A stretch of DNA of 64,000 nt from Candidatus Hydrogenedentota bacterium (GCA_045863335.1 BTVY01000004.1:64001-128000); one strand, 5' to 3'; positions 1 to 17,516 are shown, counted from the stretch's first letter. The notes: a model not told the origin generated them from the sequence alone. Numbers and translations are program-made.

Positions 1-135
1 TAGACTTAGGGCGGGCATTGAAGGAGTTTGCAGAGCGTGGCGTCGTGATGACGCGTGAACAGCCTTGTGAGTGAAGGCTAAAAGTCGGCTTCTATATAGC
101 CGGGGTAGGTAGTGGGTGCAGGAAGAGCTTTGGCG

Positions 136-1218: not shown

Positions 1219-1225
1219 GAAGAAC

Positions 1226-2030: not shown

Positions 2031-2104
2031 GAGTATGGGGTTGAGTTGTAGGCTTTCGGATTGGCAGTAGGAAAGTCTAGAAGGCTTCTGATTGGGAATG
2101 GGAT

Positions 2105-2491
2105 ATGCATACATTTCGTCGGAACAGGCTGTATTTTCTCGGAGAACTCGGCTTCCGTAGTTCTCCGAGAGAACGAGCTAGGAGGACAGTGGAACGCCGA
2201 TGGCAAGAGCAGAATCGCGTAGTGGATTTGTTGGTAAGGGGGGCGAGCATGGGAAACGTGATATCCGATGGAGAGCGTGTGAGCGTACGGTTTTCGGAAC
2301 ATCCGTGTGTAGATCAAAACCAACTTGTGTATATTCGGAATGGGGAGAGGAGAATTGTTCATCGGGTTTTGTTTCGACTGGGCCCGATATTTGTTGAGCA
2401 TGGTATTGCGAATGACTACCGAGGCATACATTGGACATCTTCGGCGATTGGAAATGTTGTTTCGGTCGAAAGAAGGAAAGCGGGAGTGTAG
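2105..2491 (+). CDS. Small S24/S26 peptidase-like protein without a TM anchor
   Basis: VRGASM..VI.DGERV, IVHRV and a degenerate GxxN box (EHGIAN). The stop lies 3 nt before the next ATG. Confidence 0.6.
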   Translation: MHTFRRNRLYFLGELGFRSSPRERARRTVERRWQEQNRVVDLLVRGASMGNVISDGERVSVRFSEHPCVDQNQLVYIRNGERRIVHRVLFRLGPIFVEHGIANDYRGIHWTSSAIGNVVSVERRKAGV

Positions 2492-2494
2492 ACT

Positions 2495-3592
2495 ATGCCT
2501 TGGGGCAAGGTTTCTCAGCCTCGTACCCTGTGTCTTTGTGGTACACCAGAGGAGATGGGTGCGGAGCACGGTGAATTGTTGCGTGATGAAATTCATGAGA
2601 ATATGTGTGAGTATGTACGTAGGAGTAGAGAGATCTTTGAGGTGCCGTACGAGTACCTGATTAGGAAAGTGGATGAGATCCTCCCTTTTATACCGGACCG
2701 TTTCAGTCGAGAGATCAGGGCACTCGCAGAGTCGGCGCGTGTAGACTTTAGGGAGTTGCTTGCGTTCAATTGTTTGGTGGATATAGACGCTACCTACATG
2801 CAGAATTTGTCTCACTGCTGCAACTTTGTTTTGGTTCCACCGGCGATTAGCGATAGCACAATTCATGGACGGAATTTAGACTTCCCTCATGCCGGAGTCT
2901 TACCTCGTACGGCGGTAGCGTTAGTAAGGTGTCCGGAGGATACGTCAAGATGTGAGACTATTTCGGTTGCATGGGCAGGATACGTCGGCATTTTAACTGG
3001 TTGTAATTCAATGGGAATATCGGTTGGCGAGGTTGGTGTGCCAGCGCGCGACTGTACGGCGCAGGGAGTCCCAATAAGCATTTTGATTCGTGATGCGCTT
3101 GAATCCTCCACGACCATGGATGTTTTTCACGACAAGGTGGGTAGAACCCCGCGCACGGGAGGTTATAATATTGCTGTGTGCGATGCAGTAAATATGAGTT
3201 CGTTGGCGATAGAATGCACGAGAGTTCAGTGCGAGTTTCGAAAGGCGAAAAAGGGGGTACTCGTTGTCGATGATGTATGTCTGTGCAAAAAAACTGGGCT
3301 TCACCGACTTGTTCATGCGTCAGGCGCATTTCGACACGCGCGCATGGTCCAGTTAATCTTACGTGCTTCCGATTCATTTTCATTGGACACCGCTATTCAG
3401 TGTCTAGGCGATAGGTACGATATGGCAACTGGTAGGGCTCATGGTCGAGGATATAACTGTATCTGCAATAGTCACACAATCCATAGCGTGGTTTTCACTG
3501 GTGATTCGGTGTGGATAGCTCAAGGCGTAACTCCGGCACCAACAGGTGGGTACCACAGGCTTGAACTATCTGAATTCTGGTCCCGCAGATGA
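2495..3592 (+). CDS. C45-family autoproteolytic Ntn hydrolase/acyltransferase
   Basis: GTPEEMGAEHG, predicted Cys nucleophile in SH-CCNF, IHGRNLDF, TGCNSMGISV, GVPISILIR. Confidence 0.85.
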   Translation: MPWGKVSQPRTLCLCGTPEEMGAEHGELLRDEIHENMCEYVRRSREIFEVPYEYLIRKVDEILPFIPDRFSREIRALAESARVDFRELLAFNCLVDIDATYMQNLSHCCNFVLVPPAISDSTIHGRNLDFPHAGVLPRTAVALVRCPEDTSRCETISVAWAGYVGILTGCNSMGISVGEVGVPARDCTAQGVPISILIRDALESSTTMDVFHDKVGRTPRTGGYNIAVCDAVNMSSLAIECTRVQCEFRKAKKGVLVVDDVCLCKKTGLHRLVHASGAFRHARMVQLILRASDSFSLDTAIQCLGDRYDMATGRAHGRGYNCICNSHTIHSVVFTGDSVWIAQGVTPAPTGGYHRLELSEFWSRR

Positions 3593-3764
3593 ATAGTGTT
3601 GGCTTTTTGCCTCGCTAAACTTAGGTTCTCCGCGAGTTAATTGAGCGTTACAGTGCTCGTCTTGAACTCGAGGGGACGGGCGTAGCGACCTCAACGTAGG
3701 GCACATCAAACTGTCAGACAATTACGCGCTCTCCGTAAAGCTATACTTGAACATCGGTACATGG

Positions 3765-4328
3765 CTACTGCTCGCCCCGCTCACACTCCGAAACTCTCCG
3801 CTGGTTAACGCCTAGTTTCTGGGCGAACTCCTGTTGTGTGAGCCCCTGGAGAAGCCGCGTCTGCGGGATACGCTCTGCCGGGGACTCCGGTGACGCGAAT
3901 GGGCTACCCCCGAGAAATGCGGCTATCTTGGGGATTGAGATGTAGTTCTGTCGAGAGTCCGGCTGGCGTTCCCATTTGGACACCGTGGCGGGGTCCACGC
4001 CCATGAGGTGGGCAGTTTCGTCCCAGGAGAGACCCAGGCCTTCCCGGTGGCGCCGCAGTTTCTCTCCGACCGTCCGGCCTGGAGGTCGCGGGTCATAGCT
4101 GAGGAATTCGATGACTTTGGGTAGCGCTCGGAGGTTCGGCGTCGCAGTTCCCGCCTCCCAGTTGAAGACCGAGGTCTTGTCCACCCCCAGAATCCCCGCA
4201 ACCTCCCGTTGCAGGAGGTTCAGGTCCATTCGGCGCTTGCGGATGTGGTCTCCGATGGTTTCTAATGTCTCTGGATAACCGGAAGGAGTTGGTTTTGCTG
4301 AACTTAGCGTTCGATGGCAACAAGGCAA
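3765..4328 (-). CDS. Multi-domain XRE helix-turn-helix protein (3 HTH), copy 1
   Basis: IGDHIRKRRMDLNLLQREVA..WEAG, VGEKLRRHR..WER and LLQGLTQQEFAQKLGV. Start is uncertain (TTG 4328); the frame runs into the comM junction. Confidence 0.8.
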   Translation of the reverse strand: MPCCHRTLSSAKPTPSGYPETLETIGDHIRKRRMDLNLLQREVAGILGVDKTSVFNWEAGTATPNLRALPKVIEFLSYDPRPPGRTVGEKLRRHREGLGLSWDETAHLMGVDPATVSKWERQPDSRQNYISIPKIAAFLGGSPFASPESPAERIPQTRLLQGLTQQEFAQKLGVNQRRVSECERGEQ

Positions 4329-4813
4329 CGCAACAGTGTCCCTGTGGATATCGTTCGCATCCGACCAAGTCCTGTCGCTGCTCCGTTGGCGAGATCCAAC
4401 GATACATGTCGAGGCTATCTGGGCCTCTCCTCGACCGGATCGACATCCATGTCGACGTTCCTGCGTTGACCTATGACGAGATTGCCAATCGAGCGACGAG
4501 CGGCCCAACAAGCGCGGAAGTGAGAACGACAGGGCAAGAAGCCCGAGACCGCCAACGAATTCGCTACAAAGGTCGGATAGCCTGCAACGCCAGGCTGGAT
4601 TCCGGCGCCATCAGAGAGTACTGTCAGGTAAGCAAGGAGTCCGAGCGGTTGCTAGAAAACGTCATGGATGAATTCGGCCTGAGCGCCCGTGCCTACGACA
4701 AGATCCTGCGGGTCGCCCGAACGATCGCCGATGTGGAAGGAGCAGAACATATCTCCGAAATGCATGTTGCGGAGGCGGTGCAATACCGCAGTTTAGACCG
4801 TCAATTGGTCTGA
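3787..4813. repeat. Direct repeat copy 1 (HTH + junction + comM 3')
   Basis: Collinear with 16975..18001 at a constant offset of 13,188. Segment 4253..4338 differs from 17441..17526 at only 5 of 86 nt. Confidence 0.95.
4337..4813 (+). pseudogene. comM: 3' fragment of comM/yifB (Mg-chelatase-like AAA+), copy 1
   Basis: CPCGY..C.C...IQRY..RLSGPLLDRIDI and LSARAYDKILRVARTIAD..H..EA.QYR. Everything upstream of CPCG is missing. Confidence 0.9.
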
Positions 4814-5099
4814 TTTTACCGCTGACTGGTCCAAAGTATGCAGGCCACACAGACTTGATGAAACTCCCTTTTCCGTATCAGTCTCCCACAATTTTTGCTT
4901 GACGAACGTCCGTCTTCGTGTTATACAGAAGCAGGACCAAGGGAGTCTTCGCCGGGGATTGGGTAAGCGCGACGAAGCGAGTTTAGGTCTAGTGCGGTAC
5001 GCGGGGGTTATCCTTGACACACCCACGTGGCTCATCTTGGGGAAGATGCAGCCAGTCGTCCTCCTTCCTCGTTTCCATCGCAGCACGTTCATGTAATTC

Positions 5100-6299
5100 A
5101 TGCTACGTGGAGTTTGCCCAATGTCGCGAGGAAGTATGATCTTTGAACTCCTGATGGGAACGATAGATCTCCGCCAGAATCTCGCACTGTTTTCCGAGCG
5201 ACTTTCGTCGAGTTTCCTAAGCCCACATCCTATCGGGACAGCTACTTGCCTACGAGCGCGAATTTTCGGGACACTTCTAGTGCTCGTAGCGAGCGCTGTT
5301 ACAGCCGAATCCAAATTCCCAGCCAACGAAGTGAGCTCCGGCCCCAGCTTGTTGCTATCTCAGCACGTTCTCGATTTTGGTCCAGTGGATCCGACGGGAA
5401 CCTATGAGAAGAGAATAACACTCATGAATGTGGGTTCAATAATTCTAAACCTCTTGCGCGTGGAGAGTTCATGTTTTTGCACACTCGTGGAGCGAGGGGC
5501 CGAACACATCGAACCATCGGATGCAACTGAATTCATCGTAACTCTCGATCCTCATTTGTACCCAAAGGAAGAAGTCGATACCTACATCATCATCGAATCC
5601 GATGATAGCTTAAGACCCAGACAATACATTGCTGTTCGGGCAAAAATTCAGCCTGAGTTCATTCTCGAACCCGCGGAAATAGACTTTGGTGATCTTCGTG
5701 TGGGTGAGTCTGTGACCAGCACGGTCTACGTTCGTCAAACTGGGGCACAAGTGCTCGAGGAACCGACAGTACGTGCTTCGGATACTATGGAAATTGTTGT
5801 CAAAGACGTGTCCTGTGCGCTGGGCAATGGCATGGGGAACCAAAACGCCCCGCGCGTTTATAGCCTGGACGTCGTTTTTTCGCCAACGGCATCGGCGTCA
5901 TATCTGCGAAATGAAATCGAAATCCTGACGAACTTCAATCGTGTTCCACGGGTGACCCTTCCGTATTACGCCAAAGTTCGCGGACTAACCTACTCTCTCT
6001 CGCGGTCGGTGGTACTTTTCGGCGAGAAGCGTCCCGGCGAATCTCTCGGAGCGTTTGAACTCACTTGCCCTGAGGATACTCTACTGAAAAGCGTTCACAT
6101 TGATGAGTCGGAAGTGGCGTTGCATGAGTCGCAGGTGGAATCCGAGGGCGTAACAACCTACAGAATAGAGATATTTGCGAAACCGTCTGCTGCCATCGGT
6201 GAGAAATCCGGTAAAGTTCACTTAACGCTTACCGACAATGCATTAGTAGAACACACGGAGGTGTCGTACTATGGCCTCCTGCGCCGTGCTGGAGATTAA
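5100..6299 (+). CDS. DUF1573 / tandem Ig-like domain exported protein
   Basis: LDFGPV...ITLMNVG..LNLLRVESSCFCT and a second IDFGDL..GE repeat, preceded by a hydrophobic segment. The true start is probably downstream of 5100. Confidence 0.75.
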   Translation: MLRGVCPMSRGSMIFELLMGTIDLRQNLALFSERLSSSFLSPHPIGTATCLRARIFGTLLVLVASAVTAESKFPANEVSSGPSLLLSQHVLDFGPVDPTGTYEKRITLMNVGSIILNLLRVESSCFCTLVERGAEHIEPSDATEFIVTLDPHLYPKEEVDTYIIIESDDSLRPRQYIAVRAKIQPEFILEPAEIDFGDLRVGESVTSTVYVRQTGAQVLEEPTVRASDTMEIVVKDVSCALGNGMGNQNAPRVYSLDVVFSPTASASYLRNEIEILTNFNRVPRVTLPYYAKVRGLTYSLSRSVVLFGEKRPGESLGAFELTCPEDTLLKSVHIDESEVALHESQVESEGVTTYRIEIFAKPSAAIGEKSGKVHLTLTDNALVEHTEVSYYGLLRRAGD

Positions 6300-6390
6300 G
6301 CCAATCTTACGTCGGATTTGCAGAGCAGCTTAAGCATTGGGAATAAACGAGTTTGGAATTGGATAGATTCGGTTGTAGGGAGTGCTCGCC

Positions 6391-9300
6391 ATGATAGTCG
6401 TTCTAAGAAACAAGACTTGGCTTCGATTGGTATCACTATTTACCGTAGCCACATTTCTGCCTTTCGCAGCGGGGGCATGGAATTTCATTCCCAATCAATC
6501 CTATGACGAGAAGTTGGCTTCTACGCCTTCATGGTCCGTTCTACCATGGAAAACAGCCGAGGAGATTTCAAAGGAAGACTTCCGAGAGCTTCCCTGGCAG
6601 ACCTTGGTCCGTGGCAAGTCCAGATCGACAGAGGGTATTCAGCCTCTATCTGAGGACGAACTGGAACGGTACAAGGGTGGGCAGATTCAAGACCGAGCTA
6701 GCATGCTTGATTCCGCAAACGTCCTATACGAATCTGGGCGAGTTGGCGAAGCTTGCATCTCGTACCTGGACATACTGGACAAGCACCCTCGTACGGTCGA
6801 AGCCGTGGAGGCAAATCGCAGGCTCGGCGAAGCCGCCAATCGATTGATGCAGGGCGAGTTAGATTCATCCGAAATAGCACGCTTCGAGGCGGAACTTCCT
6901 ACTTTGGAATCGCTAACCTCTATGGAAGGAAGATACACGCTTGTAGATTTTTACCGGTTCAAGGCAAGGGCAGTATCGGAAGGCGGCGATATCGGTGCCG
7001 GAGAACAATTGTACGCACTTACCCGGAAGGAAGCTGGGGAATTACTCAGGAACTTTCCGGATAACCCTCTACAGATTGACACCGCAATCATCTTCATGGA
7101 GTCCTCCAGGGCTCTTGGCCAAAAAGAAACGACCGAAGCAATCGAATTCCTGGAACGGCTCATATCAGAGTCTGAACCATGCATGAGTGAGTGGGCCGCC
7201 CGTTACGTAGCGGCCGCTCATGCACATACCGAACGCAATGCGCTGGGCAAGTCAGTCGGTCACTACCGGGCGATGATTCAACATGCAAAGCTCGGGTTCA
7301 TTGATGAAGCATTATCCGATCCCGGCGTATACCCTTGGGTGAAAGCGTATCTCGAACTGGCGCTCGCCGATGCGTATCACAATGCAGGTTCGCCTGATGA
7401 AGCATTCTCTCGATATCAGCGGATCGTCCAAAACTATTCCGGCACGGGCGAACCGGTCGAAGAAGCAGCCTACAACGTCGCGTTCTCGATTGGTTTTGGC
7501 CAGGCCCAGCCTTACGAGGGGATTCTAGAGTTTGGAAAGCTCATAGAAAGTGCCCCGGAAAGCATTTTTGCGGGCAAAGCGCTCTGGCAAATCGGTAACT
7601 TGTACCTGGCCGCAGAGGATTACGACGCAGCGTTGCGAACGTTTGGCGACGTAATGGAGAAGTATCCGGAGACCACTCTCGCGATAGCTGCGGAGCGCAG
7701 CTCGGAGTATATCCTCAACAACCTCGTTGGCAGCTACCGGGTGTCCGAAGGTTATGTGCTCGCCGATTCTGGGCTACCAACTGAAATCGAGGGCCAGCTT
7801 TGCGGCCCAATGGCTTTGCGCGCGCTGCTAGACGCAAACGGCATCAACGCATCGGTGGAGGAACTAGCCGTCGCTGCCGGGACGGACGGCGGTGGAACAA
7901 CGATGCTTGGACTTATTCGTGCCGCAGATAGTAAGGGCTTCGGGCTGCAGGGGGTGAAGGTCGCGAATGCGAGCGCGCTTGAGACGCCGTTCATAGCCTT
8001 CGTAAATGGAAATCACTTCGTTCTAGTAACGCAATTGGACAAGGATACGGTCCAATATCTAGACACCGGCACAGAAGCCAGAGTTGTGTCCCAGGCCGAA
8101 TTCGCACAAATGTGGCAGGGCCACGCCTTAACGAATGTAGGCTCAGGACTGTACGAATCCGCAATGAACACCGGCCAATTGACGGGCGCAAAGGGAGGTT
8201 CCGGGGGTGGCGGCGGCATCACTCTCAGCCCACCGGACTGTCCTAATGGCTTCATGCCTCCGTGCGGGGGAGGACCTCTTGGGGGCGGAGGCGGGGGCGC
8301 AGGCGATGTTCCGCCCAACAACGATTGCGGCGCGGATGGAGGAGATTCTTCAGGCTCACCTGGTGGCTCCAGTGGTGGTTCCGGCGGTGGCGGTGGTTCC
8401 GGCGGTGGCGGTGGTTCCGGCGGTGGCGGTGGCTCCGGCGGTGGCGGTGGTTCCGGCGGTGGCGGTGGCTCCAATCCCGGAAACGGGCCAAATGGGATAG
8501 GCGGTACCTTAGGCATTGGTTTGGGTAATGCTGGATCGGGACAGTTGGATGTTGGTCCCGGTAGCGGAAATGGACTTGGGGGTTTTGCAGCCTTCGGCGC
8601 GATTCCTTGGGGTGGCCATCCTGGTGAAATTTATATGGGCGGCGAAGGTAGCCACGGCAGCGGTCCACAACCCGGCGGTAGGGGGATGCCGCGGATACAA
8701 GGATTCCAGGGAGCCCAATATATGGTGAGCACCGATCTTGCCATCGATATCCGTGGACCCATGCATATCAAATTCCAACGCGGCTATCATAACCGGTGGG
8801 GAAAGCGCCGTTGGGAATACGTCCACAATTCCGAAGTCTGGAGTAACAATATCGGTCGATCGTGGACCCATAGCCTGAACATGTTCATTTCCGTCTCTAC
8901 GTCTACGCAGGGCGGAAAGCCGGACCACGTGATCTTCTATGATTCGGCCGGCAATCACAACTTTTACTACTATTCAAGCTCAACACTCGGTGCTGATCTT
9001 TACGAACCCAGCACAAAAAACCCTACGGATGATCAAGCCAATTACATCATCCGAAATTCTACAACGGATAGTTACACCCTCCATTTACCCCACGGAATGC
9101 AGTATGCCTTCGGTTCCCCGAGCTATTATATCGCGAGGATCGACACGGCGACTGATGTGTCGGGTAACGTGATATCGTTCGATTACGACAGTGGGGGCCA
9201 TCTAACGAAAGTTTACGGACCTTCGCCCGACACTCGATATATGTTCTTCGAGTATTCCGGCAATCAGATCACGAAGGCATCCATTAAGGACGGAACCGCG

Positions 9301-12300
9301 ACGTTGCTGAGTACGCAATATCAATACGACGCCAACTATGATCTGACGAAAGTAATTGACGTTGATGGCTCAGACATCGAATATACCTATGGAAACGACA
9401 GCCGGGATGTGGACACCGCATACATCGCTTCGTTTACGGACAAAGAAGACCGGACAACGACGTACAGTTATCTATACGATTACCATCCAGACGGTTGGGG
9501 TCTGCACCCCTACATCATCACCATCAACTATCCTGACGGTATCCAGGAGGTAATCAATCGCACACAGGGATCCGGTTATAACCGAGCGTCGGACACAGTT
9601 CAATACCAGGGTACGCTCCTGAGCAAGATCGAGATCATACCAGGACCGCAAGGGTACTACCCCCAGTTTGTGCGAATCTACACCGGCCAAGGGTTGGCGT
9701 ATGAAGAGTGGGAATTTGAGTACCACGACAACCTGAACGACAACAATACCGAAAACGACCGTGACTTAAAAGCGATTATCGATCCCCGAGGAGTTCGTGT
9801 AAACGAGTTCACTTGGACTTCGGACGGTCGCTTGGCAAGCATTAGATTTCCTGGCCAGCCCGCTTCGACGTTCGAGTATGCTACAAGTGGCCTGCACGCG
9901 ACCAAGGTCAATCATCCGGATGGGGCCTCGTCCTATTACTACTACGATTCTCAAGATAGACTCACAAAAGAAGTCTTGCCTTGGAGCGGTTCGAACGGTT
10001 ACCAGAGAACTTTCGATTCGTACGGGCAATTGACGTCTCTTGTGAATCCTCTATCCAACTCCACAACATATGCCTATGACTCTATCGGGAAAATCACCAG
10101 CGTGAAGACCGCGCTCAATGATGAGTGGCTCCTTGAATATGATGCATTGGGACATCTTACAAAACGCACGTCCCCCTTATCGCAAGTCCAACAGTTCTAT
10201 TATGCAAGCGGAGGTTGCGGCGGCTGCGGCGGGGGTGGTCTCCTAACGAAGGTCACGGACGCGGACAGTAACGACACGTTGTTTGCGTACGATGTTGTGG
10301 GTAATGTCACGAAGATTACTGCCGCGACTTTACAGGCGACGGATTTCTTTTACGATATCAATGACCGGCTCACCAAGATCACGACGCCGTCGGGAAGCGC
10401 GAACGACATGACGTTCGCGTACGATCGCTTAGGACGGTTGACGAGTCTTACGGATTTGAACGGGAAGACCGCTTCCTCTACGTACAATCATCGCGACCAA
10501 GTGCTTACGGTGAGCGACGCCGTGGGAACGGTTACATTTACGTATGACTCATCGGGGAACCTGTCCACTGTCACGGATGCATTGAGTCATACGTGGGATT
10601 ACGACTACGATGGAAACAGCTATCTCACATCCGTTACAGACCCCGTGGCCAAGTATGTCAAGTATTTCTATGACGGTTATGGGCGGTTGACCAAGGTTGG
10701 GGCCGGTTCGAGTGGGAGCTTCGACCCAACAGAGTATTTCTACAACTCGTCCACTGGTGTCATGACGAAGGTGCGGTATACGAGCGGTGCGCAGTCACAC
10801 GAGGCGACATACGAGTTTGACAACATGCTACGTGTTACGCGGCTCAAGGACTGGATCGACGCGACGAACGGCATCCAGTACGCGTACGACGCGGCGAACC
10901 GGCTGACGCGGATTACGGATTACGACAGCTCTACTCTGGATTACGCATATGACGCCGCCGGCCGGGTAACGTCTCAGAACGACTATCACAGCAACACGAC
11001 GACATATACGTATACCGTGCGCAATCAACTTAGTACGATCACGGCGCCGGGCAGCAAGGTCTGGGATTTCGATTACAACACGCTCGGCCAGCCGACGGGA
11101 TATGCCCATCCCAACGGGGTCACCACGGCGTACGAATACGATTCGCGGCACCGGATGACGAAGATCGCGCATATGAACGGACAGACGACGCTCGATAGCT
11201 TTGACTACGCGTTAGACACGGGCAGCCTGATCTCGAGCGTGACCCACGCGGATAGCTCCTTTTGGGACTACGCCTATGACGATCGCTATCGCCTCACCAG
11301 CGCCGTACGCAGCAACGCCAACGAGACCATTGAGGCCACGTATGCCTACACCTACGATGCGGGCGACAACCTGCTCACAAAGGTCGAGCCCTTCGAGGAC
11401 GATTTCAATGATGGGAATTACACGGGCTGGTCGGTGTGGTCCGGGTCGTGGAGCGCGGCGAACAATTATCTCCGGATGACGCCGGGGTCGGCGGGGACCA
11501 TCGCGCAGAATGCGAATACGGATAACGATCTGGAATTGCGTTTCTCCTACGTCTGCAACGACACGAGCAACAGCGGGTACACGTTGACGGTGAGTCCGCG
11601 CTACGCATCGAATGGGGACCGCATCTATCTAAACATCCTGCCGGGGTCGGTGAACCTGGCGCAGCGCGTGGGCGGCGTGTGGTCGTCGCTGGACTCCCAG
11701 GCTCTCACCAGCACGCAGGGCGTCGAGTACACCATCCGCGTCGTGTGCGACGGGTCGGACGTGCAGGTCTTCCGGACCGCTCCCGGCGAACTCGAACAGG
11801 AGGTCCTCTCCACCTCCAGTTGCACCGTTGCGAGCACGAACTACATCTCCTTCACCCCCAGCCTGAACGCCGACTACAGCATCGACAACATCCGCATCCT
11901 CTCCGACGACCTCAGCAACACGACCACCTTCGCCGTCAACAACGCCAACGAACTCACCTCCATGACGGACTACAACGGCTCCACCACCTTCGCCTTCGAC
12001 GCCTGGGGCCGCATGACCTCGAAGGCGCGTGGCAGTTATTCGGCGACGTATGGTTACAAGTACGGCCAGATGTTGTGTAATGTGGCTAGCAACTGGCCGA
12101 GCGAAGGGGATGTGACGTACAATTACGGCGGCAACCTGCAACGGCGGGAACGGACCGTGGATAGTACGACGGTCAGGTACAACTGGAATGGAGGCTTTGG
12201 CCTCATCAGCGAGGAAGACGACTCTGGAAATCTGACGCGCACCTACACCGGCCGTCTTGCGGACGTGAACGGGAGCAACCCGGCTACGGGAACAAGCCGG

Positions 12301-12945
12301 TACTACCATGGTGACAATCTTGGCTCCGCCCGGCGAGTTACGGATGGTTCGGCAGCAACATTGGCCGCCAACGAATACACGCCGTACGGCTCTAGCTTTC
12401 AGTCTTTCGGCTCGGCGTCAACATGGGCCTATGGCATGTTAGCAGACGATTGGCCTTCCGGGACACTATTCGCGCCTTTCCGGAATTACCTACCGGAGAC
12501 TGGACGTTGGTCGTGCCAAGATCCGCTCGATATGATTGACGGCACAAATATGTTCGCGTATGTGCAGGGGAACCCAATCAACGCTGTCGATCCCCTGGGG
12601 CTTGGTCTCTTCAGATATTTGTCTTGCATGTTATTCGGTACGCCACCAAACAGCAAGAGTCCGCCTGATGGCGTCCTTAATCCTTTCTCGCCACAATTGA
12701 TGGGCCCCGAGGCAGAAGGTGCATACCAAGTCGCCAAACGGAGTATGAACGTCGGTAAGAAAGCGACCGGCAGAGCAGCGGCACTTATGGTAGGCAAGGC
12801 CATGGCCCGATATGTTGCATGGCCTGTTAGTGCTGCCGTTACGGCGGCTTCTCACGTTGGTTGTGATGAATCACTAGAGGATCAGCCAATGGCGGGAATC
12901 GTTCGTATTGATTTTGGAGAGTACCTGGGTCTCCTAGGGGGTTAA
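6391..12945 (+). CDS. Rhs/YD-repeat polymorphic toxin with signal peptide, TPRs and a C39 peptidase domain
   Basis: Signal peptide (..FLPFAAGA); TPR-like helices; C39 motifs LCGP (Cys 7801), GTTMLGL and NHFV (His 8014), YLD; Gly-rich linker; many YD repeats; core end PETGRW..DP...GTNMFAYVQGNPINAVDPLGL; 113-aa tip. Confidence 0.92.
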   Translation: MIVVLRNKTWLRLVSLFTVATFLPFAAGAWNFIPNQSYDEKLASTPSWSVLPWKTAEEISKEDFRELPWQTLVRGKSRSTEGIQPLSEDELERYKGGQIQDRASMLDSANVLYESGRVGEACISYLDILDKHPRTVEAVEANRRLGEAANRLMQGELDSSEIARFEAELPTLESLTSMEGRYTLVDFYRFKARAVSEGGDIGAGEQLYALTRKEAGELLRNFPDNPLQIDTAIIFMESSRALGQKETTEAIEFLERLISESEPCMSEWAARYVAAAHAHTERNALGKSVGHYRAMIQHAKLGFIDEALSDPGVYPWVKAYLELALADAYHNAGSPDEAFSRYQRIVQNYSGTGEPVEEAAYNVAFSIGFGQAQPYEGILEFGKLIESAPESIFAGKALWQIGNLYLAAEDYDAALRTFGDVMEKYPETTLAIAAERSSEYILNNLVGSYRVSEGYVLADSGLPTEIEGQLCGPMALRALLDANGINASVEELAVAAGTDGGGTTMLGLIRAADSKGFGLQGVKVANASALETPFIAFVNGNHFVLVTQLDKDTVQYLDTGTEARVVSQAEFAQMWQGHALTNVGSGLYESAMNTGQLTGAKGGSGGGGGITLSPPDCPNGFMPPCGGGPLGGGGGGAGDVPPNNDCGADGGDSSGSPGGSSGGSGGGGGSGGGGGSGGGGGSGGGGGSGGGGGSNPGNGPNGIGGTLGIGLGNAGSGQLDVGPGSGNGLGGFAAFGAIPWGGHPGEIYMGGEGSHGSGPQPGGRGMPRIQGFQGAQYMVSTDLAIDIRGPMHIKFQRGYHNRWGKRRWEYVHNSEVWSNNIGRSWTHSLNMFISVSTSTQGGKPDHVIFYDSAGNHNFYYYSSSTLGADLYEPSTKNPTDDQANYIIRNSTTDSYTLHLPHGMQYAFGSPSYYIARIDTATDVSGNVISFDYDSGGHLTKVYGPSPDTRYMFFEYSGNQITKASIKDGTATLLSTQYQYDANYDLTKVIDVDGSDIEYTYGNDSRDVDTAYIASFTDKEDRTTTYSYLYDYHPDGWGLHPYIITINYPDGIQEVINRTQGSGYNRASDTVQYQGTLLSKIEIIPGPQGYYPQFVRIYTGQGLAYEEWEFEYHDNLNDNNTENDRDLKAIIDPRGVRVNEFTWTSDGRLASIRFPGQPASTFEYATSGLHATKVNHPDGASSYYYYDSQDRLTKEVLPWSGSNGYQRTFDSYGQLTSLVNPLSNSTTYAYDSIGKITSVKTALNDEWLLEYDALGHLTKRTSPLSQVQQFYYASGGCGGCGGGGLLTKVTDADSNDTLFAYDVVGNVTKITAATLQATDFFYDINDRLTKITTPSGSANDMTFAYDRLGRLTSLTDLNGKTASSTYNHRDQVLTVSDAVGTVTFTYDSSGNLSTVTDALSHTWDYDYDGNSYLTSVTDPVAKYVKYFYDGYGRLTKVGAGSSGSFDPTEYFYNSSTGVMTKVRYTSGAQSHEATYEFDNMLRVTRLKDWIDATNGIQYAYDAANRLTRITDYDSSTLDYAYDAAGRVTSQNDYHSNTTTYTYTVRNQLSTITAPGSKVWDFDYNTLGQPTGYAHPNGVTTAYEYDSRHRMTKIAHMNGQTTLDSFDYALDTGSLISSVTHADSSFWDYAYDDRYRLTSAVRSNANETIEATYAYTYDAGDNLLTKVEPFEDDFNDGNYTGWSVWSGSWSAANNYLRMTPGSAGTIAQNANTDNDLELRFSYVCNDTSNSGYTLTVSPRYASNGDRIYLNILPGSVNLAQRVGGVWSSLDSQALTSTQGVEYTIRVVCDGSDVQVFRTAPGELEQEVLSTSSCTVASTNYISFTPSLNADYSIDNIRILSDDLSNTTTFAVNNANELTSMTDYNGSTTFAFDAWGRMTSKARGSYSATYGYKYGQMLCNVASNWPSEGDVTYNYGGNLQRRERTVDSTTVRYNWNGGFGLISEEDDSGNLTRTYTGRLADVNGSNPATGTSRYYHGDNLGSARRVTDGSAATLAANEYTPYGSSFQSFGSASTWAYGMLADDWPSGTLFAPFRNYLPETGRWSCQDPLDMIDGTNMFAYVQGNPINAVDPLGLGLFRYLSCMLFGTPPNSKSPPDGVLNPFSPQLMGPEAEGAYQVAKRSMNVGKKATGRAAALMVGKAMARYVAWPVSAAVTAASHVGCDESLEDQPMAGIVRIDFGEYLGLLGG
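8380..8472 (+). repeat. Coding tandem repeat, 5 x 18 bp (SGGGGG)
   Basis: TCCGGCGGTGGCGGTGG(T/C) five times, then TCC. Confidence 0.95.
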
Positions 12946-13023
12946 AACTGCTGTAGATTGGAAATGCAAATGCGTATGTTGATTGAAGGCGTGTCGAGAT
13001 AACCTTACACAGCACGAGGTAGA

Positions 13024-13497
13024 GTGGCTAGAGAGAATCTCAATCCTGATGTGCTAGCGAACCCGTTCGAGCGTACGCGCATGATCTGGGTTTGGATTCT
13101 TACGTCCGTCACCGTCGTGGAGGTTTTGCGTGTTTGGGCGAGCTTCCAGGCCGTTCCTGCCAACCAAACGTCGAGCGACCGCGCTTCGTTCGTGACAGAT
13201 ATGATGAGTTTTCTAACGTGGGGCGGTACCCTGTTTGCAATGGTGGCGGTGACGGTCATTCTGGTCTTCGCAGTGCGGGTGATTGTTCATCCCAGTACGC
13301 TAATACTTGGAAGAATTGCACTGCTATGTGTTCTAGTAGCTCTTGGCGGCGAGTTTCCTGCGTTCTTCCTCCGCGACGCTATTGGCATATCGATGGTATT
13401 GGATTTGGTGCGACTATTTGCGGGTTTGTTGGGCTTGGCAGCGGCGAAGTTTTCGCATTCAGTGTCCAATTCAGATCACCTAACATCCGAGAGTTGA
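13024..13497 (+). CDS. Four-TM membrane protein, candidate Rhs immunity protein
   Basis: Four hydrophobic stretches; directly downstream of and co-oriented with the rhs gene; GAGG upstream of GTG. Confidence 0.6.
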   Translation: MARENLNPDVLANPFERTRMIWVWILTSVTVVEVLRVWASFQAVPANQTSSDRASFVTDMMSFLTWGGTLFAMVAVTVILVFAVRVIVHPSTLILGRIALLCVLVALGGEFPAFFLRDAIGISMVLDLVRLFAGLLGLAAAKFSHSVSNSDHLTSES

Positions 13498-13952
13498 CTG
13501 CGTTACTGTGTCCGGTAAGCCCGGGTTAACATGAGTACAGAATTAGAGACGTGAAGCGCAACGAATAGATGATTGCTGGCGTGAGTCGATGGGTGATATT
13601 GGTCTCGCGGTATTCGTTCAGTGCGACGACGAGGTTTGGACGGTGGCGTGGTACACCGCGGATACGAGCACGTTCGTCACAAACTCTTTCTGTGGCGGTT
13701 TGGCGCTGGTGACCGGGCATCACGGATAAGGGTGGTGCGCCCCTGACCAGTGTGTGCATAGCTAGTACTGGGTCCGTTGACTTTGCGAGTTTATGAAGTG
13801 CGGATTTGGAGAATCCCAATCGGTTCGGGACTATTGATGGTTTGAGTGATGCCGCGCTCGTCGAGCGAGGCAGTACGAATGGGATTCAGGCCTTCGGTGT
13901 GGCGCGTCCGCATTCGAAGGTTACGCCAAAGGCCGAAGCGAGCGTGCTTCGC

Positions 13953-16490
13953 TCAGGGGACAGTGGGCACGTCGACGCCCGGTTTTGGGATCTCGGCCGT
14001 TGGGATCGACGGCGGCACGCCCGGAAGGTCCAGCATGAGATCGCTGGGCATAAGCGGAGCGTTCGGGTCGTTCATCGGTGACCCGCCTGCTTGCAGGTCC
14101 GCGATGAGCCGTTGCAGTTCCGGCTGATTGGCATCGATGGATAGACTTCGCGCGAAGTACCGGTGCGCCATGGCGGGTTGGCGTTTGTCGTTGAGGTAGA
14201 TCATGCCCAGTTCGCGGTAGATGCGGGCTTTGTCTCTCGGTATCACGCTCGGCCGCGTGATACCTGGCGACGCAGGCGACTTCGCTTCGCTGAAGTCGCC
14301 GGGAAAGGTGTCCATCCGCTCCAATTGCGCTATCGCCTCGTCGATACGGCCCTGCTCTTTCAGGCAGGTGAAGGCCAGCCAATTGGCCTCGGGTTCCAAG
14401 GGGTCCTGCTTTAGCAGCTGTTCGAACAGGGGCAACGCCTCGCGGTGCTGGCCGGTCTGGACATAGACCTTGCCGAGGTTCCGCAGCGACGTGCCGTACT
14501 CCGGGTCCGCCTCTAACGCCTGCGTGTAGTAGCGCTCCGCAGATTCCAGTTGCCCATACTCTGCGCAGACACTGCCGAGGTTGTTCAGCGTCTTCTTGCC
14601 GCCCTCGCCAATGTGGAGTGCCGTGTCGAAGGCCACCATGGCATGCTCTGTGTCTCCCTCATGGATAAACGTCCTACCTTGCGAGAAGTGGTAGTCCGCA
14701 AGGATCATTTGGGCGGTGAGTTCGCCACGCGTGTCGGATTCGTCCAGTGTGTGCCAAGTGTACTCCGCCCAGTAGTCACGCTCCGGCGGAGTTTCTCCGT
14801 CGCGCATGACGCGGTATAGGAGCCCGGCATTGACCATCTGCGCGCCCGGTACGCCCGGCAACGGCCGCTTCTTCGTGAAGTACACGGGCCGGTCTGGATT
14901 CTGCGTGATGATCCAGTCCTCGATGCCCTGCTCTTCCGCTTCCGTGGGGATCTTGCGGAAGCGGTTGCGTAGGTCCTCCGGCATGTCCGCGTACAGGTGT
15001 TCCTCGGGGTAGCCGTACTTGTTGGCGATGGTGACATCGGGCCGGAGTCCTTCCACCACCTGAAGGTAGATCACCGGGAAGGTCGCATGGTCCGCCGTGG
15101 GGAAGTAGACAGCGTTCTTATCAATGGTTTCGAGGACGTTCCGGCCGTAGTCGTAGGCGAAGTAGTAGTCGCCCTTGTCCACAAAGGACCGGTTCATGGC
15201 GAGGGGGAAGGCGACGACGATGACTGACACCACCGTGACCATGAGCGTCCGCCCGAGGCCGCGTTTTCCGATGTTCGTGGCGAGAGAGGGACAGACCCCG
15301 TGTTTCGCTCCGAAGACTCCGCGAAAGACGGGGTCAGTCCCCATCGTGCGCATCGTGCGGCTGAGCAAGTCGATGGCGCCGCCGATGAAGATTCCGGCCA
15401 TCATGTAGACGGGAATCCAGAAGACATTGTTTACCCAGATCGCGAGGGGGTCTATGGCGAAGTTGTTGACCAGCATGACCGCGAAGAGGACGACGGCCGT
15501 GAGGACGGCCAGGAAGGCCGTGCGATGCCGGTCGCGACGCCAGAGGGCGTAGACTCCCACGGGCGGCACCCAAGCCAGCCAAGGTGTGAACTCCCGGAGG
15601 TAAAGCCGGAGGAACACGCCGCATTGCTGGAAGAAGAGTCCCAGGCTGCGGGGGTGCTCGGTGAACATGAACTTGTACTGGGCGCGGGTGACCACGTCCT
15701 TGAAATTCTCCCAAGTCTCCGGGTTGCCCCAGTCCATGGGCGGGTCGGCAGCGGATCGGATGGGCAGGTAGAGGTAGACGGACAGGCCGAGCAGGCAGAG
15801 TCCGGCCATTCCGAGGTAGACCGGCCATTGCCGCCAGGACTGGCGGTCGTTGAACAAGATGAACCCGGCGAAGACGACGCCGAGAAGTTGCATCGTGCTG
15901 TGATTGGTGAGGCTGAGGCCGTAGACGAAGGCGAAGAGGAGCAGCAGGCGCGGCTGCCGGGACTCGTACCACAGGAACAGCAGCAACACGCACAGAGCGA
16001 TGAAGAAGGTGTTCAGCGAATACACCTCGGCGATGACGCTCTGCTCCCAGAACTCCCGCGAAAACGCGAAAGCCAGCGCCCCGGTCACGGCGGCGACCCG
16101 ATTCCGCGTCAGCCGGAGGATGATCAGACACACCAGCCCGACTGTCACCGCCGCGAAGAACGCGGACATGAAGTTCACGCGCCACGCCACGGTTCCAAAG
16201 GGGATATACGTGAACAAATGCCCCAACAGACACCAGATTGGATACCCCGGCGGATGGGCAATCCCCAACGTATACGCCGCCGTGACCAACTCCCCGCTGT
16301 CTTCCCCCGTGACCGTCGGCCCCAGCGTCGGCACATACACGCCCAGCGCGACCAAGGAAGCGCCCAGGGCTGTCAAATAATCTCCGGGAGTGAAGCGATG
16401 TCCACCCAGTCCCTGAGTCGAGTTTGCGCTGTTCTGTGGTCGCAGGACATGATTTCCGAACGTAGTCCGTTCCTGTTTCTTCTTCTTCAC
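13953..16490 (-). CDS. DUF2723 (TMEM260-like GT-C) membrane protein with C-terminal TPRs
   Basis: PTVTGEDSGEL..A..LGIAHPPGYP, AEVYSLN, LTNH, YLYLPIRS..PPMDWGNP; C-terminal TPRs. Confidence 0.9.
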   Translation of the reverse strand: MKKKKQERTTFGNHVLRPQNSANSTQGLGGHRFTPGDYLTALGASLVALGVYVPTLGPTVTGEDSGELVTAAYTLGIAHPPGYPIWCLLGHLFTYIPFGTVAWRVNFMSAFFAAVTVGLVCLIILRLTRNRVAAVTGALAFAFSREFWEQSVIAEVYSLNTFFIALCVLLLFLWYESRQPRLLLLFAFVYGLSLTNHSTMQLLGVVFAGFILFNDRQSWRQWPVYLGMAGLCLLGLSVYLYLPIRSAADPPMDWGNPETWENFKDVVTRAQYKFMFTEHPRSLGLFFQQCGVFLRLYLREFTPWLAWVPPVGVYALWRRDRHRTAFLAVLTAVVLFAVMLVNNFAIDPLAIWVNNVFWIPVYMMAGIFIGGAIDLLSRTMRTMGTDPVFRGVFGAKHGVCPSLATNIGKRGLGRTLMVTVVSVIVVAFPLAMNRSFVDKGDYYFAYDYGRNVLETIDKNAVYFPTADHATFPVIYLQVVEGLRPDVTIANKYGYPEEHLYADMPEDLRNRFRKIPTEAEEQGIEDWIITQNPDRPVYFTKKRPLPGVPGAQMVNAGLLYRVMRDGETPPERDYWAEYTWHTLDESDTRGELTAQMILADYHFSQGRTFIHEGDTEHAMVAFDTALHIGEGGKKTLNNLGSVCAEYGQLESAERYYTQALEADPEYGTSLRNLGKVYVQTGQHREALPLFEQLLKQDPLEPEANWLAFTCLKEQGRIDEAIAQLERMDTFPGDFSEAKSPASPGITRPSVIPRDKARIYRELGMIYLNDKRQPAMAHRYFARSLSIDANQPELQRLIADLQAGGSPMNDPNAPLMPSDLMLDLPGVPPSIPTAEIPKPGVDVPTVP
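14239..14300. repeat. Intragenic double hairpin
   Basis: GGTATCACGC-N6-GCGTGATACC (14239-14264) and GGCGACTTC-N8-GAAGTCGCC (14275-14300). Confidence 0.85.
15288..15341. repeat. Intragenic palindromic element (GGGACAGACCCC type)
   Basis: 21-bp arms GGGACAGACCCCGTGTTTCGC / GCGAAAGACGGGGTCAGTCCC with 2 mismatches and a 12-nt loop. Confidence 0.85.
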
Positions 16491-16946: not shown

Positions 16947-17516
16947 TTAAAAGTCCGCACGTCCCAGTTCCAATTCCGAAACTCTTCGTTGATCTATGCC
17001 CAACTCCTCGGCGAACGCACTTTGCGTGAGTCCCTGAAGTAATCGCTCCTGCCTAAGGCGCTCCGCAGAAGATCCGGGCGGTGGGAACGGGTTATACCCC
17101 AGGAATGCGGCTATCTTGGGAATCGAAATATGGTTCTGCCTGGAGTCCGGCTGGCGTTCCCATTTGGACACCGTAGCTGGGTCCACGGTCATGGCCGTGG
17201 CCGCTTCAGCCCAGGACATACCCAGGCCTTCCCGGTGACGGCGCAGTCTTTCTCCGACCGTTCGGCCCAGCGGACGGGGATCATAACCAAGGAACCGGAT
17301 TACTTTGGGCAGTACTCGGAGGTTCGGCGTGGCGGTTCCTGCCTCCCAATTGAAGACTGAGGCCTTATTTACTTCCAGAATCCCCGCAACCTCCCGTTGT
17401 AGGAGGTTCAGGTCCATTCTGCGCTTGCGGATATGGTCCCCGATGGTTTCTAATGTCTCTGGATAACCGGAAGGAATTGGTTTTGTTGAACTTAGCTCTC
17501 GATGACAACAAGGCAA
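16947..17516 (-). CDS. Multi-domain XRE HTH protein (3 HTH), copy 2
   Basis: Paralogue of 3765..4328 with the same three HTH units. Confidence 0.8.
   Translation of the reverse strand: MPCCHRELSSTKPIPSGYPETLETIGDHIRKRRMDLNLLQREVAGILEVNKASVFNWEAGTATPNLRVLPKVIRFLGYDPRPLGRTVGERLRRHREGLGMSWAEAATAMTVDPATVSKWERQPDSRQNHISIPKIAAFLGYNPFPPPGSSAERLRQERLLQGLTQSAFAEELGIDQRRVSELELGRADF

Follow-up and report, generated by a model that had tools for sequence, protein, structure and literature searches.

A predicted Sec-exported Rhs toxin of a Candidatus Hydrogenedentota bacterium with a TPR-C39 peptidase prodomain that may cut itself off at a conserved double-glycine motif

A 64-kb stretch of DNA from a Candidatus Hydrogenedentota bacterium (64,000 nucleotides in full, referred to here as the window) contains on its plus strand, at 6391..12945, a gene for a putative pro-Rhs toxin, which was delimited by its open reading frame and by Pfam and NCBIfam matches. 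The ORF encodes 2184 amino acids and ends with a stop codon at 12943-12945. It is also readable from position 6382; the ATG at 6391 is preceded at a distance of 8 nt by AGGGAG, and relatives keep the N-terminus as read from this ATG in sequence comparisons. The encoded protein comprises, in this order, a signal peptide, the double-glycine motif LSEDELERYKGG (motif 1), a TPR solenoid, a Peptidase_C39 domain, a second double-glycine motif MNTGQLTGAKGG (motif 2), a Gly-rich linker, an Rhs shell, the sequence DPLGL, and a C-terminal tip. The same order had been given in a preliminary description of the locus and is borne out by Pfam and NCBIfam profile matches to Peptidase_C39, TPR_6, RHS_repeat, and Rhs_assc_core; its positions for both motifs and for the three catalytic residues also agree with the coordinates given below.

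A phmmer search with aa 1-640 retrieved 201 proteins at E<=1e-10, 24 of them at E<=1e-30. RHS_repeat was found in all 23 long relatives that were scanned and Peptidase_C39 (E<=1e-6) in 22 of the 23. The related genome loci belong mostly to Candidatus Hydrogenedentota MAGs, and no conserved neighbor genes were found among the relatives. Judged by these searches, the gene is a member of a sizeable undescribed family.

The N-terminal residues 1-29 (6391..6477, plus strand) are predicted from sequence features to form a Sec signal peptide, with a hydrophobic stretch at aa 11-29 in the hydropathy profile, the positive charges R6, K8, and R12, and AGA in front of W30. The pattern F[LFV]P...[AV]W[N]F[IL]P is shared by 14 of 33 intact N-termini in the family. 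In agreement with the preliminary description, neither PAAR or VgrG domains nor domains of ABC transporters, T1SS, or T6SS were detected by Pfam in the protein and the 51 other ORFs of the window. Classification as a T6SS-delivered Rhs effector was rejected, as the window contains no PAAR, VgrG, or T6SS domain and the N-terminus is occupied by the predicted signal peptide. Delivery without a T6SS, as suggested before, is compatible with the predicted signal peptide and with the absence of PAAR and VgrG from the 64 kb of genome covered. The host appears to be diderm, with genes for an LpxA-type acyltransferase, LpxB, and OmpA in the window. That a cage of ~165 kDa would have to pass the outer membrane of this apparent diderm speaks against the reading favored below.

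The cage lies in the C-terminal part of the protein. It is preceded by a linker of 178 aa with 44% Gly (8200..8733, plus strand), which is delimited by its composition and by AF2 pLDDT values below 50 from aa 605, holds the Cys pair PPDCPNGFMPPC at aa 614-625, and contains an 18-nt tandem repeat at 8356-8490 coding for (SGGGGG)n. The Rhs/YD-repeat shell (8734..12603, plus strand) extends in its Pfam and NCBIfam matches from a plug-like N-terminal region, with a weak match to DUF6531, to the Rhs-associated core. RHS_repeat (PF05593) matches in 12 stretches (E 5e-63, Pfam), the YD repeat TIGR01643 in nine (E 3e-47, NCBIfam), and Rhs_assc_core TIGR03696 at aa 1996-2071 (51.6 bits at a cut-off of 32.5, NCBIfam). 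With its many RHS repeats and a core that ends in DPxGL (DPLGL, aa 2067-2071, 12589-12603), the protein is classed by sequence as an Rhs/YD-repeat polymorphic toxin. Assignment as an E. coli-type RHS element core protein (NF041261) was rejected, the match reaching 114.8 bits where the curated cut-off is 2000. Within the shell, an inserted segment of ~176 aa (aa 1668-1843, 11392..11919, plus strand) is missing from the relative P0002, which has 10 aa at this place; the segment has a weak 3-keto-disaccharide-hydrolase/DUF1080-like match (E 2e-4) under the Pfam cut-off. The likeness to P0002 stops at DPxGL. The following tip of 113 aa (12604..12942, plus strand), presumed from its position after DPLGL to be the encapsulated toxin, has no Pfam match and no Atlas match >=0.9. 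Downstream, a 157-aa ORF (13024..13497, plus strand) without a Pfam family encodes several hydrophobic membrane-span-like segments and is a candidate immunity protein; a 156-aa multi-TM ORF of similar type follows the Rhs gene of the related locus L003.

The N-terminal part of the protein is built differently. Residues ~101-445 (6691..7725, plus strand) form an all-helical TPR-like solenoid, which is modelled by AF2 with a pLDDT of at least 90 along its whole length, has consensus TPR superhelices as top Foldseek matches (E 2.6e-6), and contains a Pfam TPR_6 match at aa 397-428. It is followed by the C39 domain (aa 455-590, 7753..8160, plus strand), in which Peptidase_C39 (PF03412) matches at aa 470-581 (E 3e-19, 69.5 bits at a Pfam cut-off of 22). 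Foldseek comparison of the AF2 model returned the peptidase domains of ComA (PEP; TM 0.76, rmsd 2.1 A), LahT150 (TM 0.73, rmsd 1.7 A), and PCAT1, the C39 matches overall having TM values of 0.73-0.76 and rmsd values of 1.7-2.3 A. The catalytic codons for C471 (7801-7803), H542 (8014-8016), and D558 (8062-8064), all on the plus strand, line up with the Cys/His/Asp triad of PCAT1. In a family alignment of 45 rows, the Cys is present in 44 and the His in 43, while the position of D558 is D in 37 and E in four. The conservation of the triad argues for a catalytically active peptidase rather than a C39-like domain that only binds. PCAT-type C39 domains have an oxyanion Gln ~6 residues before the Cys. 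This residue is not conserved in the family: the column of E465 varies, and in that of Q469, two positions before the Cys, 21 of 45 rows have Q. Its role is doubted in the LahT paper itself (PMC6363468).

The domain resembles the peptidases of PCAT/AMS exporters (PCAT1, ComA, LahT) in its PF03412 match, the triad, the fold, and an associated motif with hydrophobic residues at -12, -7, and -4 followed by GG. In contrast to these exporters, enzyme and "leader" are located on one chain, with the leader-like motif internal and behind the enzyme, and the predicted location is outside the cytoplasm. An ABC transporter part is also lacking; transporter models match over only their first ~126 residues and far below cut-off (TIGR03796 and TIGR01193, profile positions ~5-135 of ~710, 36.5 and 28.1 bits at cut-offs of 853 and 524). 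Accordingly, assignment as a PCAT/AMS bacteriocin ABC exporter was rejected, the protein having no ABC domains by Pfam and its C39 domain not being fused to transmembrane or ATPase parts.

A C39 domain in an Rhs protein could also be a toxin in its own right. Tox-PL-C39 is listed among the RHS-repeat-associated toxin domains (Zhang et al. 2012, PMC3482391), and the protein might thus carry two warheads, with the C39 domain as an effector of the Tox-PL-C39/Cpe1 type and not as a processing domain. Domains of this type sit C-terminally behind their carrier, whereas the C39 domain described here has an N-terminal position outside the cage, is joined to TPRs, and always has a cleavage-type motif of its own behind it; among solved structures, the transporter peptidase domains of PCAT1, ComA, and HlyB are nearest to it in sequence, and a second immunity-like gene was not found. 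This explanation is regarded as highly improbable, and assignment to the Tox-PL-C39/Cpe1/StbD-type toxin domains was rejected because of the position upstream of the Rhs shell.

The cleavage-type motif behind the C39 domain, motif 2 (aa 592-603, 8164..8199, plus strand), agrees with the leader consensus L(-12)xxxE(-8)L(-7)..h(-4).GG at -12, -7, -4, and GG, and a cut is predicted after G603. Its conservation in homologues, a check set beforehand on which the preliminary proposal depended, is strong: in the 45-row alignment the column of G602 has G in 40 rows and that of G603 in 38, with A in two more, and the positions -12 and -7 are L32/M4/I4 and L23/M15, respectively. Of 51 proteins that continue for at least 100 aa beyond the C39 domain, 32 show a loose leader pattern (0.033 expected per searched window); this pattern is also present in four of six Rhs-type genome loci, the other two having near-variants that end in GG at the same place. 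Across 40 instances the composition is L29/M6/I3/V2 at -12, L23/M16/V1 at -7, I12/V8/A7/L6 at -4, and G35/A4/S1 at -1, and the GG finishes 10-16 residues past the C39 domain in 29 of them. Since the residues past the GG are variable and not always Gly-rich, the GG is more than the beginning of the linker. Motif 2 is a family-wide trait. Its pattern is the one seen in the co-crystal of LahT150, where Leu-12, Leu-7, and Val-4 are seated in a hydrophobic groove and followed by GG, GA, or GS (PMC6363468). In the AF2 model, which was built from the 45-row alignment (mean pLDDT 82.1), aa 591-600 have a pLDDT of 94 with a helix at aa 594-599; the value falls to 55 for aa 601-610 and to ~35 further on. 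The GG would lie at C471, as judged from pLDDT and secondary structure only. A helix belonging merely to the fold of the C39 domain would give the same picture as a docked motif.

The AF2 placement of aa 591-600 shows at most binding, and motif 2 might accordingly occupy the groove uncut, as a tethered pseudo-substrate that blocks the peptidase or as a structural helix, while the true GG substrates are other proteins of the own or of a target cell. Cleavage of target proteins at GG is known from C39-like toxins, namely Cpe1, which acts on GyrB/ParE at LHAGG|KF (PMC12136450), and likewise StbD-CT. A pseudo-substrate, however, should lose its scissile GG, which is the best-kept part of motif 2 (G at -2 in 40 of 40 instances), and the C39 domain is N-terminal and outside the Rhs cage instead of in the delivered tip. 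Furthermore, the tethered GG beside the C39 domain of StbD-CT does get cut. A motif 2 that binds without being cut is considered unlikely.

That a C39 domain can process its own chain in cis at GG is already known from this precedent. In StbD-CT, a CdiA-like toxin of Citrobacter rodentium, the domain self-processes after Gly-Gly in the adjoining linker, and processing is lost with Cys-to-Ala or GG-to-SS exchanges, as described in the available part of the report (10.64898/2026.05.07.723447). In both cases, a polymorphic toxin contains a C39 domain with a Gly-Gly adjoining it on the same chain. In StbD-CT, however, the C39 domain is the C-terminal delivered toxin, has its GG upstream, cuts GyrB/ParE, and is accompanied by an immunity protein, whereas in the protein described here it belongs to an N-terminal TPR-fused prodomain with the GG downstream in a leader-like helix motif (-12/-7/-4) and with an Rhs cage as cargo.

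Motif 1 (aa 86-97, 6646..6681, plus strand) fits the leader consensus in full, with L-12, E-8, L-7, Y-4, and GG. A search of the six-frame translation of the window (127,996 residues) with the strict pattern L[ST]xx[ED]Lxx[IVLMFY]xG[GAS] gave a single match, which begins at 6646, and motif 1 scores 17.8 bits with a PSSM derived from the post-C39 motifs of relatives, a value reached by none of 300 shuffles. As a family feature it largely fails, being significant (p<=0.01) in only five of 33 relatives with intact N-termini and not in the other 28. With regard to leader docking, a further check proposed before, the helix of motif 2 is placed with confidence by AF2, whereas for motif 1 AF2 gives no confident docking (pLDDT 47-55, both in the presence of motif 2 and after its removal) and a complex prediction with the C39 domain gives weak support. 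Of the earlier proposal that two GG sites bracket and excise the TPR and C39 domains, the site after C39 stands as general, whereas motif 1 is restricted to this protein and a few relatives, in which two-site excision may occur. By sequence, the general feature of the family is a single predicted cut after the C39 domain, and motif 1 is best read as an accessory, lineage-limited second predicted cut site.

The distance of ~370 residues between motif 1 and the C39 domain, together with its undocked state in cis, would also suit cleavage in trans, or a late cleavage after release or on reducing contact, with the TPR-C39 part serving as a timed release or activation switch. The C39 domain of StbD is inactive under oxidizing conditions (10.64898/2026.05.07.723447), and such redox gating would agree with late action; as the prodomain is predicted to be extracytoplasmic, the same property could limit where and when its peptidase is active, a point against the favored reading. 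For motif 2, the short and fixed spacing and the confident intramolecular placement point to cis instead, and trans or late cleavage appears quite unlikely.

Both motifs fit the leader consensus recognized by C39-ABC transporters (PMC6363468), and they might be export signals for a separate PCAT/T1SS-type transporter encoded outside the 64 kb covered, with the own C39 domain as an accessory. Such a transporter is found neither in the window nor beside the relatives L003 and L004, and a fused C39 domain with an intact triad would be redundant. PCAT substrates carry their leader at the very N-terminus, whereas both motifs are internal in a 2184-aa chain, behind a conserved predicted signal peptide; assignment as the terminal leader of a short PCAT-exported precursor was rejected on this ground. 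A separate transporter is hardly to be expected.

In the favored reading, considered somewhat likelier true than false, the protein is a pro-Rhs toxin exported by Sec, and its TPR-C39 prodomain removes itself by a cut after G603 and frees the cage. The N-terminal prodomain would combine the TPR solenoid with a C39 cysteine peptidase that is of the bacteriocin type and active. Directly past the peptidase, aa 591-603 would mimic a double-glycine leader and fold back as a short helix onto their own C39 domain, and the cut after G602-G603 would part the ~570-residue prodomain from the remainder of the chain, which begins with the Gly-rich linker and continues into the Rhs cage. The leader copy at aa 86-97, which only a minority of relatives share with this protein, would permit a second cut that removes the N-terminal ~70 residues. 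Like other Rhs toxins, the cage would use its aspartyl autoprotease to cut after DPLGL (aa 2071) and keep the 113-aa tip inside, and the membrane-span ORF downstream would be the likely immunity protein. The order of the domains, the catalytic residues, the conserved site with its fixed spacing, and the confident AF2 placement of the motif 2 helix are observed, whereas cleavage, its occurrence in cis, its location, and the exit of the cage from the cell are inferred. The earlier notion of a hybrid of leader processing and Rhs toxin that is excised in cis is supported at the conserved site after C39, but as a family feature largely not at the site before the TPRs (five of 33). If this reading is true, a toxin cage would be freed without a separate processing machine. 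A wider proposal remains doubtful: that a bacteriocin leader/C39 pair was captured in one chain as a self-excising Rhs-cage prodomain in T6SS-poor, little-studied diderm phyla, that the signal peptide (W-N-F-(I/L)-P) and TPRs are a new export or tethering route, and that ordered cuts after G603 and G97 free the cage and a soluble TPR-C39 protease.

In-chain peptidases that free part of an RHS-repeat toxin have been described as releasing peptidases of polymorphic toxins, including HINT, ZU5, PrsW, caspase-like, Tox-PL1, and OTU domains; the available part of that survey has C39 as a toxin domain (Tox-PL-C39) only, not as an N-terminal releasing peptidase, and gives no cis double-glycine site (Zhang et al. 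2012, PMC3482391). In T6SS Rhs effectors, N-terminal autocleavage parts the cage from the delivery module, besides the C-terminal DPxGL cut (Nat Commun 2021, PMC8636562). The protein described here is similar in that its cage is predicted to be separated from an N-terminal module by proteolysis. The cut in the T6SS effectors is reportedly a property of the N-terminal plug of the Rhs part itself, with a PAAR/VgrG-linked module, whereas here a separate C39 domain would cut at a leader-type site and a signal peptide replaces PAAR. Giant proteins of Omnitrophota, for which self-cleavage has been suggested by the authors, are of another protein class without Rhs cage or TPR module, and no cleavage motif is identified in the available part of the report (10.1101/2023.11.21.568195), but they are likewise very large, secreted, and headed by a signal peptide with a C39 domain behind it.

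A single long ORF on the forward strand of the window (6382/6391-12945) encodes the C39-Rhs protein, a 2184-aa polypeptide. The ATG at 6391 is taken as the start codon, because an AGGGAG sequence ends 8 nt upstream and because the resulting N-terminus is conserved in relatives. An in-frame TTG about 26 codons before G97, which would turn the first double-glycine motif into an N-terminal leader, was considered as an alternative start and rejected, as the upstream signal-peptide region is kept in relatives and a good Shine-Dalgarno sequence precedes the start at 6391. The signal peptide itself (aa 1-35, 6391-6495) has a family-conserved form, ..F[LFV]P(3-5 aa)[AV]W[N]F[IL]P, which 14 of the 33 relatives with an intact N-terminus match. 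The mature protein is predicted to begin with W-N-F-I-P, a start that is uncommon for an ordinary Sec signal and may represent a sorting signal.

The domain order proposed in the preliminary description was confirmed as a whole, and profile searches recovered each of the three domain types on which it relied. Pfam detected Peptidase_C39 at aa 470-581 (E 3e-19, 69.5 bits versus a cut-off of 22), one clear TPR copy at aa 397-428, and RHS_repeat in 12 stretches (E 5e-63), while an Rhs-associated core at aa 1996-2071 scored above the NCBIfam cut-off. The residues C471, H542, and D558 (nt 7801, 8014, and 8062) align with the Cys/His/Asp triad of PCAT1, a bacteriocin exporter with a C39 domain. Leader-like double-glycine sites are located before the TPRs (motif 1, LSEDELERYKGG, aa 86-97, nt 6646-6681) and after the C39 domain (motif 2, MNTGQLTGAKGG, aa 592-603, nt 8164-8199), and the C-terminal autoprotease motif of the Rhs shell, DPLGL, is found at aa 2067-2071; the earlier coordinates of both motifs, the triad, and DPLGL were all correct. 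Behind this autoprotease motif, which closes the Rhs shell, the protein carries a variable tip. Between G603 and the start of the shell lies a linker of 178 residues with 44% Gly, part of which, (SGGGGG)n, is encoded by a near-perfect 18-nt tandem repeat (8356-8490, forward strand); its length is likely variable through slippage of this repeat. The shell also contains an insertion of about 176 aa (aa 1668-1843, 11392-11919) that is missing from the relative P0002. This insertion weakly resembles 3-keto-disaccharide hydrolase/DUF1080 (E 2e-4, short of the cut-off) and might act as a module of lectin-like or receptor-binding type.

When aa 1-640 were compared by phmmer with a set of 1.84 billion representative proteins, 1736 of these matched at E<=1e-3, including 201 with E<=1e-10 and 24 with E<=1e-30. 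A C39 domain was identifiable in 94 sequences among the best 150 matches and the query. All 23 long relatives that were scanned carry RHS repeats and 22 of them carry Peptidase_C39 at E<=1e-6; TPR-C39-Rhs is therefore a family rather than an isolated fusion. Species-representative genomes yielded nine related loci, five in Candidatus Hydrogenedentota MAGs, one in another MAG, and three more distant (Poribacteria, Chthonomonadaceae), a taxonomic range that is under-sampled since they were scanned with one peptide pattern from the 4-row alignment A2.

The central finding is the site after the C39 domain. Of 51 proteins with at least 100 residues after C39, 32 loosely match h-x4-h-x2-h-x-G[GAS] with a start between positions -10 and +45 relative to where the domain ends, compared to a background expectation of 0.033 per such interval in the same proteins. 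Among the 19 misses, ten have near-variants by eye, e.g. LLDMDALERTRGG, and nine have none; seven of these nine are proteins in which C39 is followed by DUF1573-like sequence. Within 40 motif 2 instances, position -12 is occupied by Leu (29), Met (6), Ile (3), or Val (2), position -7 by Leu (23), Met (16), or Val (1), and position -4 mostly by Ile (12), Val (8), Ala (7), or Leu (6); Arg (13) and Lys (10) are frequent at -3, and the motif ends with Gly in all 40 at -2 and with Gly (35), Ala (4), or Ser (1) at -1. The GG ends 10-16 residues past the domain in 29 of the 40 instances, the commonest spacing being 13, and the residues following it are variable and often not glycine. In the independent 45-row MAFFT alignment A3, G602 is Gly in 40 rows and G603 is Gly in 38 and Ala in two more, with C471 kept in 44 rows and H542 in 43. 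Four of the six genome loci of the Rhs type fit the pattern, and the remaining two carry variants whose terminal GG occupies the same position. The family pattern matches the leader residues of the LahT150-leader co-crystal as described in the available text of that study, in which Leu-12, Leu-7, and Val-4 lie in a hydrophobic groove and GG, GA, or GS stands at the cut (PMC6363468). The conservation expected of the double-glycine sites was thus found for motif 2, and both the comparative data and the model give good support to one conserved self-cleavage-type site after C39.

Two further observations concern the sequence behind the peptidase. A Cys motif, C[PR]NG...C, follows about 10 residues after the GG (aa 614-625, 8230-8265); by eye it is shared by many relatives (e.g. 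P0026, P0037, and the loci L003 and L004), and it would sit near the new N-terminus of a released Rhs part. A second architecture among the C39 relatives, with C39 followed by DUF1573-like Ig domains and without the GG motif, is found in P0096, P0109, P0111, P0128, P0144, P0151, and at locus L007.

AF2 modelling of aa 1-650 with alignment A3 (mean pLDDT 82.1, pTM 0.65) predicted an all-helical solenoid at aa ~101-445 (pLDDT of at least 90) and a C39 domain with pLDDT 92-97. Foldseek matched the solenoid to consensus TPR superhelices and the peptidase to ComA (TM 0.76, rmsd 2.1 Å), LahT150 with leader (TM 0.73, rmsd 1.7 Å), and PCAT1. The TPR part also weakly resembles YbgF and BamD, two periplasmic TPR proteins, with scores under the NCBIfam cut-offs. 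Of the two motifs, the segment containing motif 2 was placed confidently in the model: aa 591-600 reach pLDDT 94 and include a helix (aa 594-599), before confidence falls to 55 at aa 601-610 and to about 35 beyond. The intramolecular placement of aa 591-600 is accordingly a confident prediction, and from model confidence, spacing, and homology we infer that the GG would lie at the C39 active site.

Motif 1 presents a different picture. Across all six frames of the window (127,996 residues), the strict leader pattern is found a single time, at 6646. Scored with a position matrix derived from the post-C39 motifs of the relatives alone, motif 1 reaches 17.8 bits, and 300 shuffled versions of the N-terminal region never attained this value. 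Judged by its sequence, motif 1 is more than a chance occurrence in the window's protein. A significant match (p<=0.01) was found in only five of 33 intact N-termini (the query, P0005, P0006, P0060, and P0016), with P0025 borderline, and several other relatives retain, by eye, a stretch resembling LSxxEL that lacks the GG. In the window's protein motif 1 is thus canonical, but it is not a trait of the family, and the conservation proposed for both sites did not hold for this one. Motif 1 was also not confidently docked by AF2. The motif 1 blocks (aa 81-90 and 91-100) had pLDDT values of 47 and 53 in the aa 1-650 model, and removal of motif 2 (aa 1-590) brought no gain (54 and 55). A complex prediction of the C39 domain (aa 455-590, A3) with a motif 1 peptide (aa 60-105) scored 0.55 (runs 0.55, 0.56, and 0.55; best of three controls 0.00), with a partner pLDDT of at least 52 and agreement between runs in at least 68% of contacts. 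In the calibration, 116 of 157 solved complexes attained the mark, as did 2 of 215 mismatched pairs; scores of 0.60 or less comprise only 18 of the 157 solved complexes and both passing mismatches. The score may reflect memory of the solved LahT-leader and PCAT1-substrate complexes; it was taken as weak support and not counted as evidence. Of the proposed bracketing of the TPR-C39 module by two sites, the post-C39 site is thus conserved, whereas the pre-TPR site is specific to the window's protein and a few relatives, with little support beyond its sequence.

Most of what is known of Rhs toxins concerns cargo of the T6SS or, in Gram-positives, wall-associated proteins that depend on Sec. For the C39-Rhs protein, with its domain order, its family-wide intact triad, and a leader-type GG that follows the peptidase at a short, constant spacing, the most likely route is one in which Sec would export the pro-Rhs protein and the prodomain would fold. 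Residues 591-603 would then occupy the C39 groove and be cut after G603, separating TPR-C39 from the linker and the Rhs cage. An additional cut, after G97, may remove about 70 N-terminal residues in the window's protein. The cut after G603 could serve release from a tether or from a chaperone-like prodomain. The interpretation in the preliminary description is in this way partly supported.

The closest mechanistic precedent for a C39 cut in cis at GG, as far as the available text goes, is StbD-CT, the C39 toxin of a CdiA-like protein of Citrobacter rodentium, which is described as processing itself after Gly157-Gly158 in a linker upstream of the domain, an activity lost with Cys-to-Ala and GG-to-SS exchanges (10.64898/2026.05.07.723447). 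The C39-like toxin Cpe1 cuts GyrB/ParE after GG, according to the accessible part of its report (PMC12136450). For giant Omnitrophota proteins with an N-terminal C39 near signal peptides, the authors guess at self-cleavage and name no site in the text available (10.1101/2023.11.21.568195, 2023). In the accessible portion of a polymorphic-toxin survey, C39 is listed only as the C-terminal toxin domain Tox-PL-C39, and the releasing peptidases belong to other families (PMC3482391). No description of a TPR-C39 prodomain with a leader-type GG site in cis before an Rhs cage was found in a literature search that lay outside most subscription journals and supplements. For phyla without a T6SS or Gram-positive wall route, one step in the maturation and release of Rhs cages would gain a concrete, testable answer, namely a defined enzyme (C471/H542/D558) and a defined predicted site (after G602-G603). 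C39 would join the list of polymorphic-toxin releasing peptidases, the recognition module of bacteriocin leader peptidases would be reusable within a single large protein, and a C39 domain followed after ~13 residues by h-x4-h-x2-h-x-GG would provide a signature for pro-toxins in metagenomes.

The tip (aa 2072-2184) is variable in that similarity to P0002 stops at DPxGL. It matched no Pfam family and gave no Atlas lead at or above 0.9. A 157-aa ORF with several membrane-span-like segments follows the C39-Rhs gene (13024-13497, forward strand), and a multi-span membrane ORF is located 3' of the Rhs gene at L003 as well, which hints at an envelope target, although strongly hydrophobic segments are absent from the tip. 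The tip ends in ...GEYLGLLGG (12907-12942), i.e. with a terminal Gly-Gly.

As had been claimed for the gene's surroundings, Pfam scans of the 51 other ORFs of the window found no PAAR, VgrG, T6SS, T1SS, or ABC-exporter genes; no transporter genes lie beside the two best related loci, where the neighbours differ from those in the window. A diderm host is indicated by Pfam matches in the window to an LpxA-type acyltransferase, LpxB, and an OmpA-family gene. Directly upstream of the C39-Rhs gene lies a DUF1573/HYDIN-Ig gene (5100-6299), which was rejected as partner or substrate because it lacks a leader motif with GG and is not conserved beside relatives. A promoter and terminator scan of 4800-14000 gave results at or below chance. 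The G+C content is 50-55% over 1-14000, compared to about 60% elsewhere in the window. A unit consisting of a triple-HTH regulator (reverse strand) and a truncated ComM/Mg-chelatase C-terminal fragment (forward strand, 182 aa) is present at 3765-4813 and again at 16947-18001, the two sharing a 300-nt repeat with 74% identity. These units flank the DUF1573 gene, the C39-Rhs gene, a TMEM260-like glycosyltransferase, and the 157-aa ORF. The intervening segment, in which an integrase was not seen, looks duplicated or inserted at a comM-type site. Unrelated to the C39-Rhs finding, the reverse strand at 39052-41937 encodes a 961-aa protein with a C-terminal gingipain-type Peptidase_C25 domain (E 2e-70).
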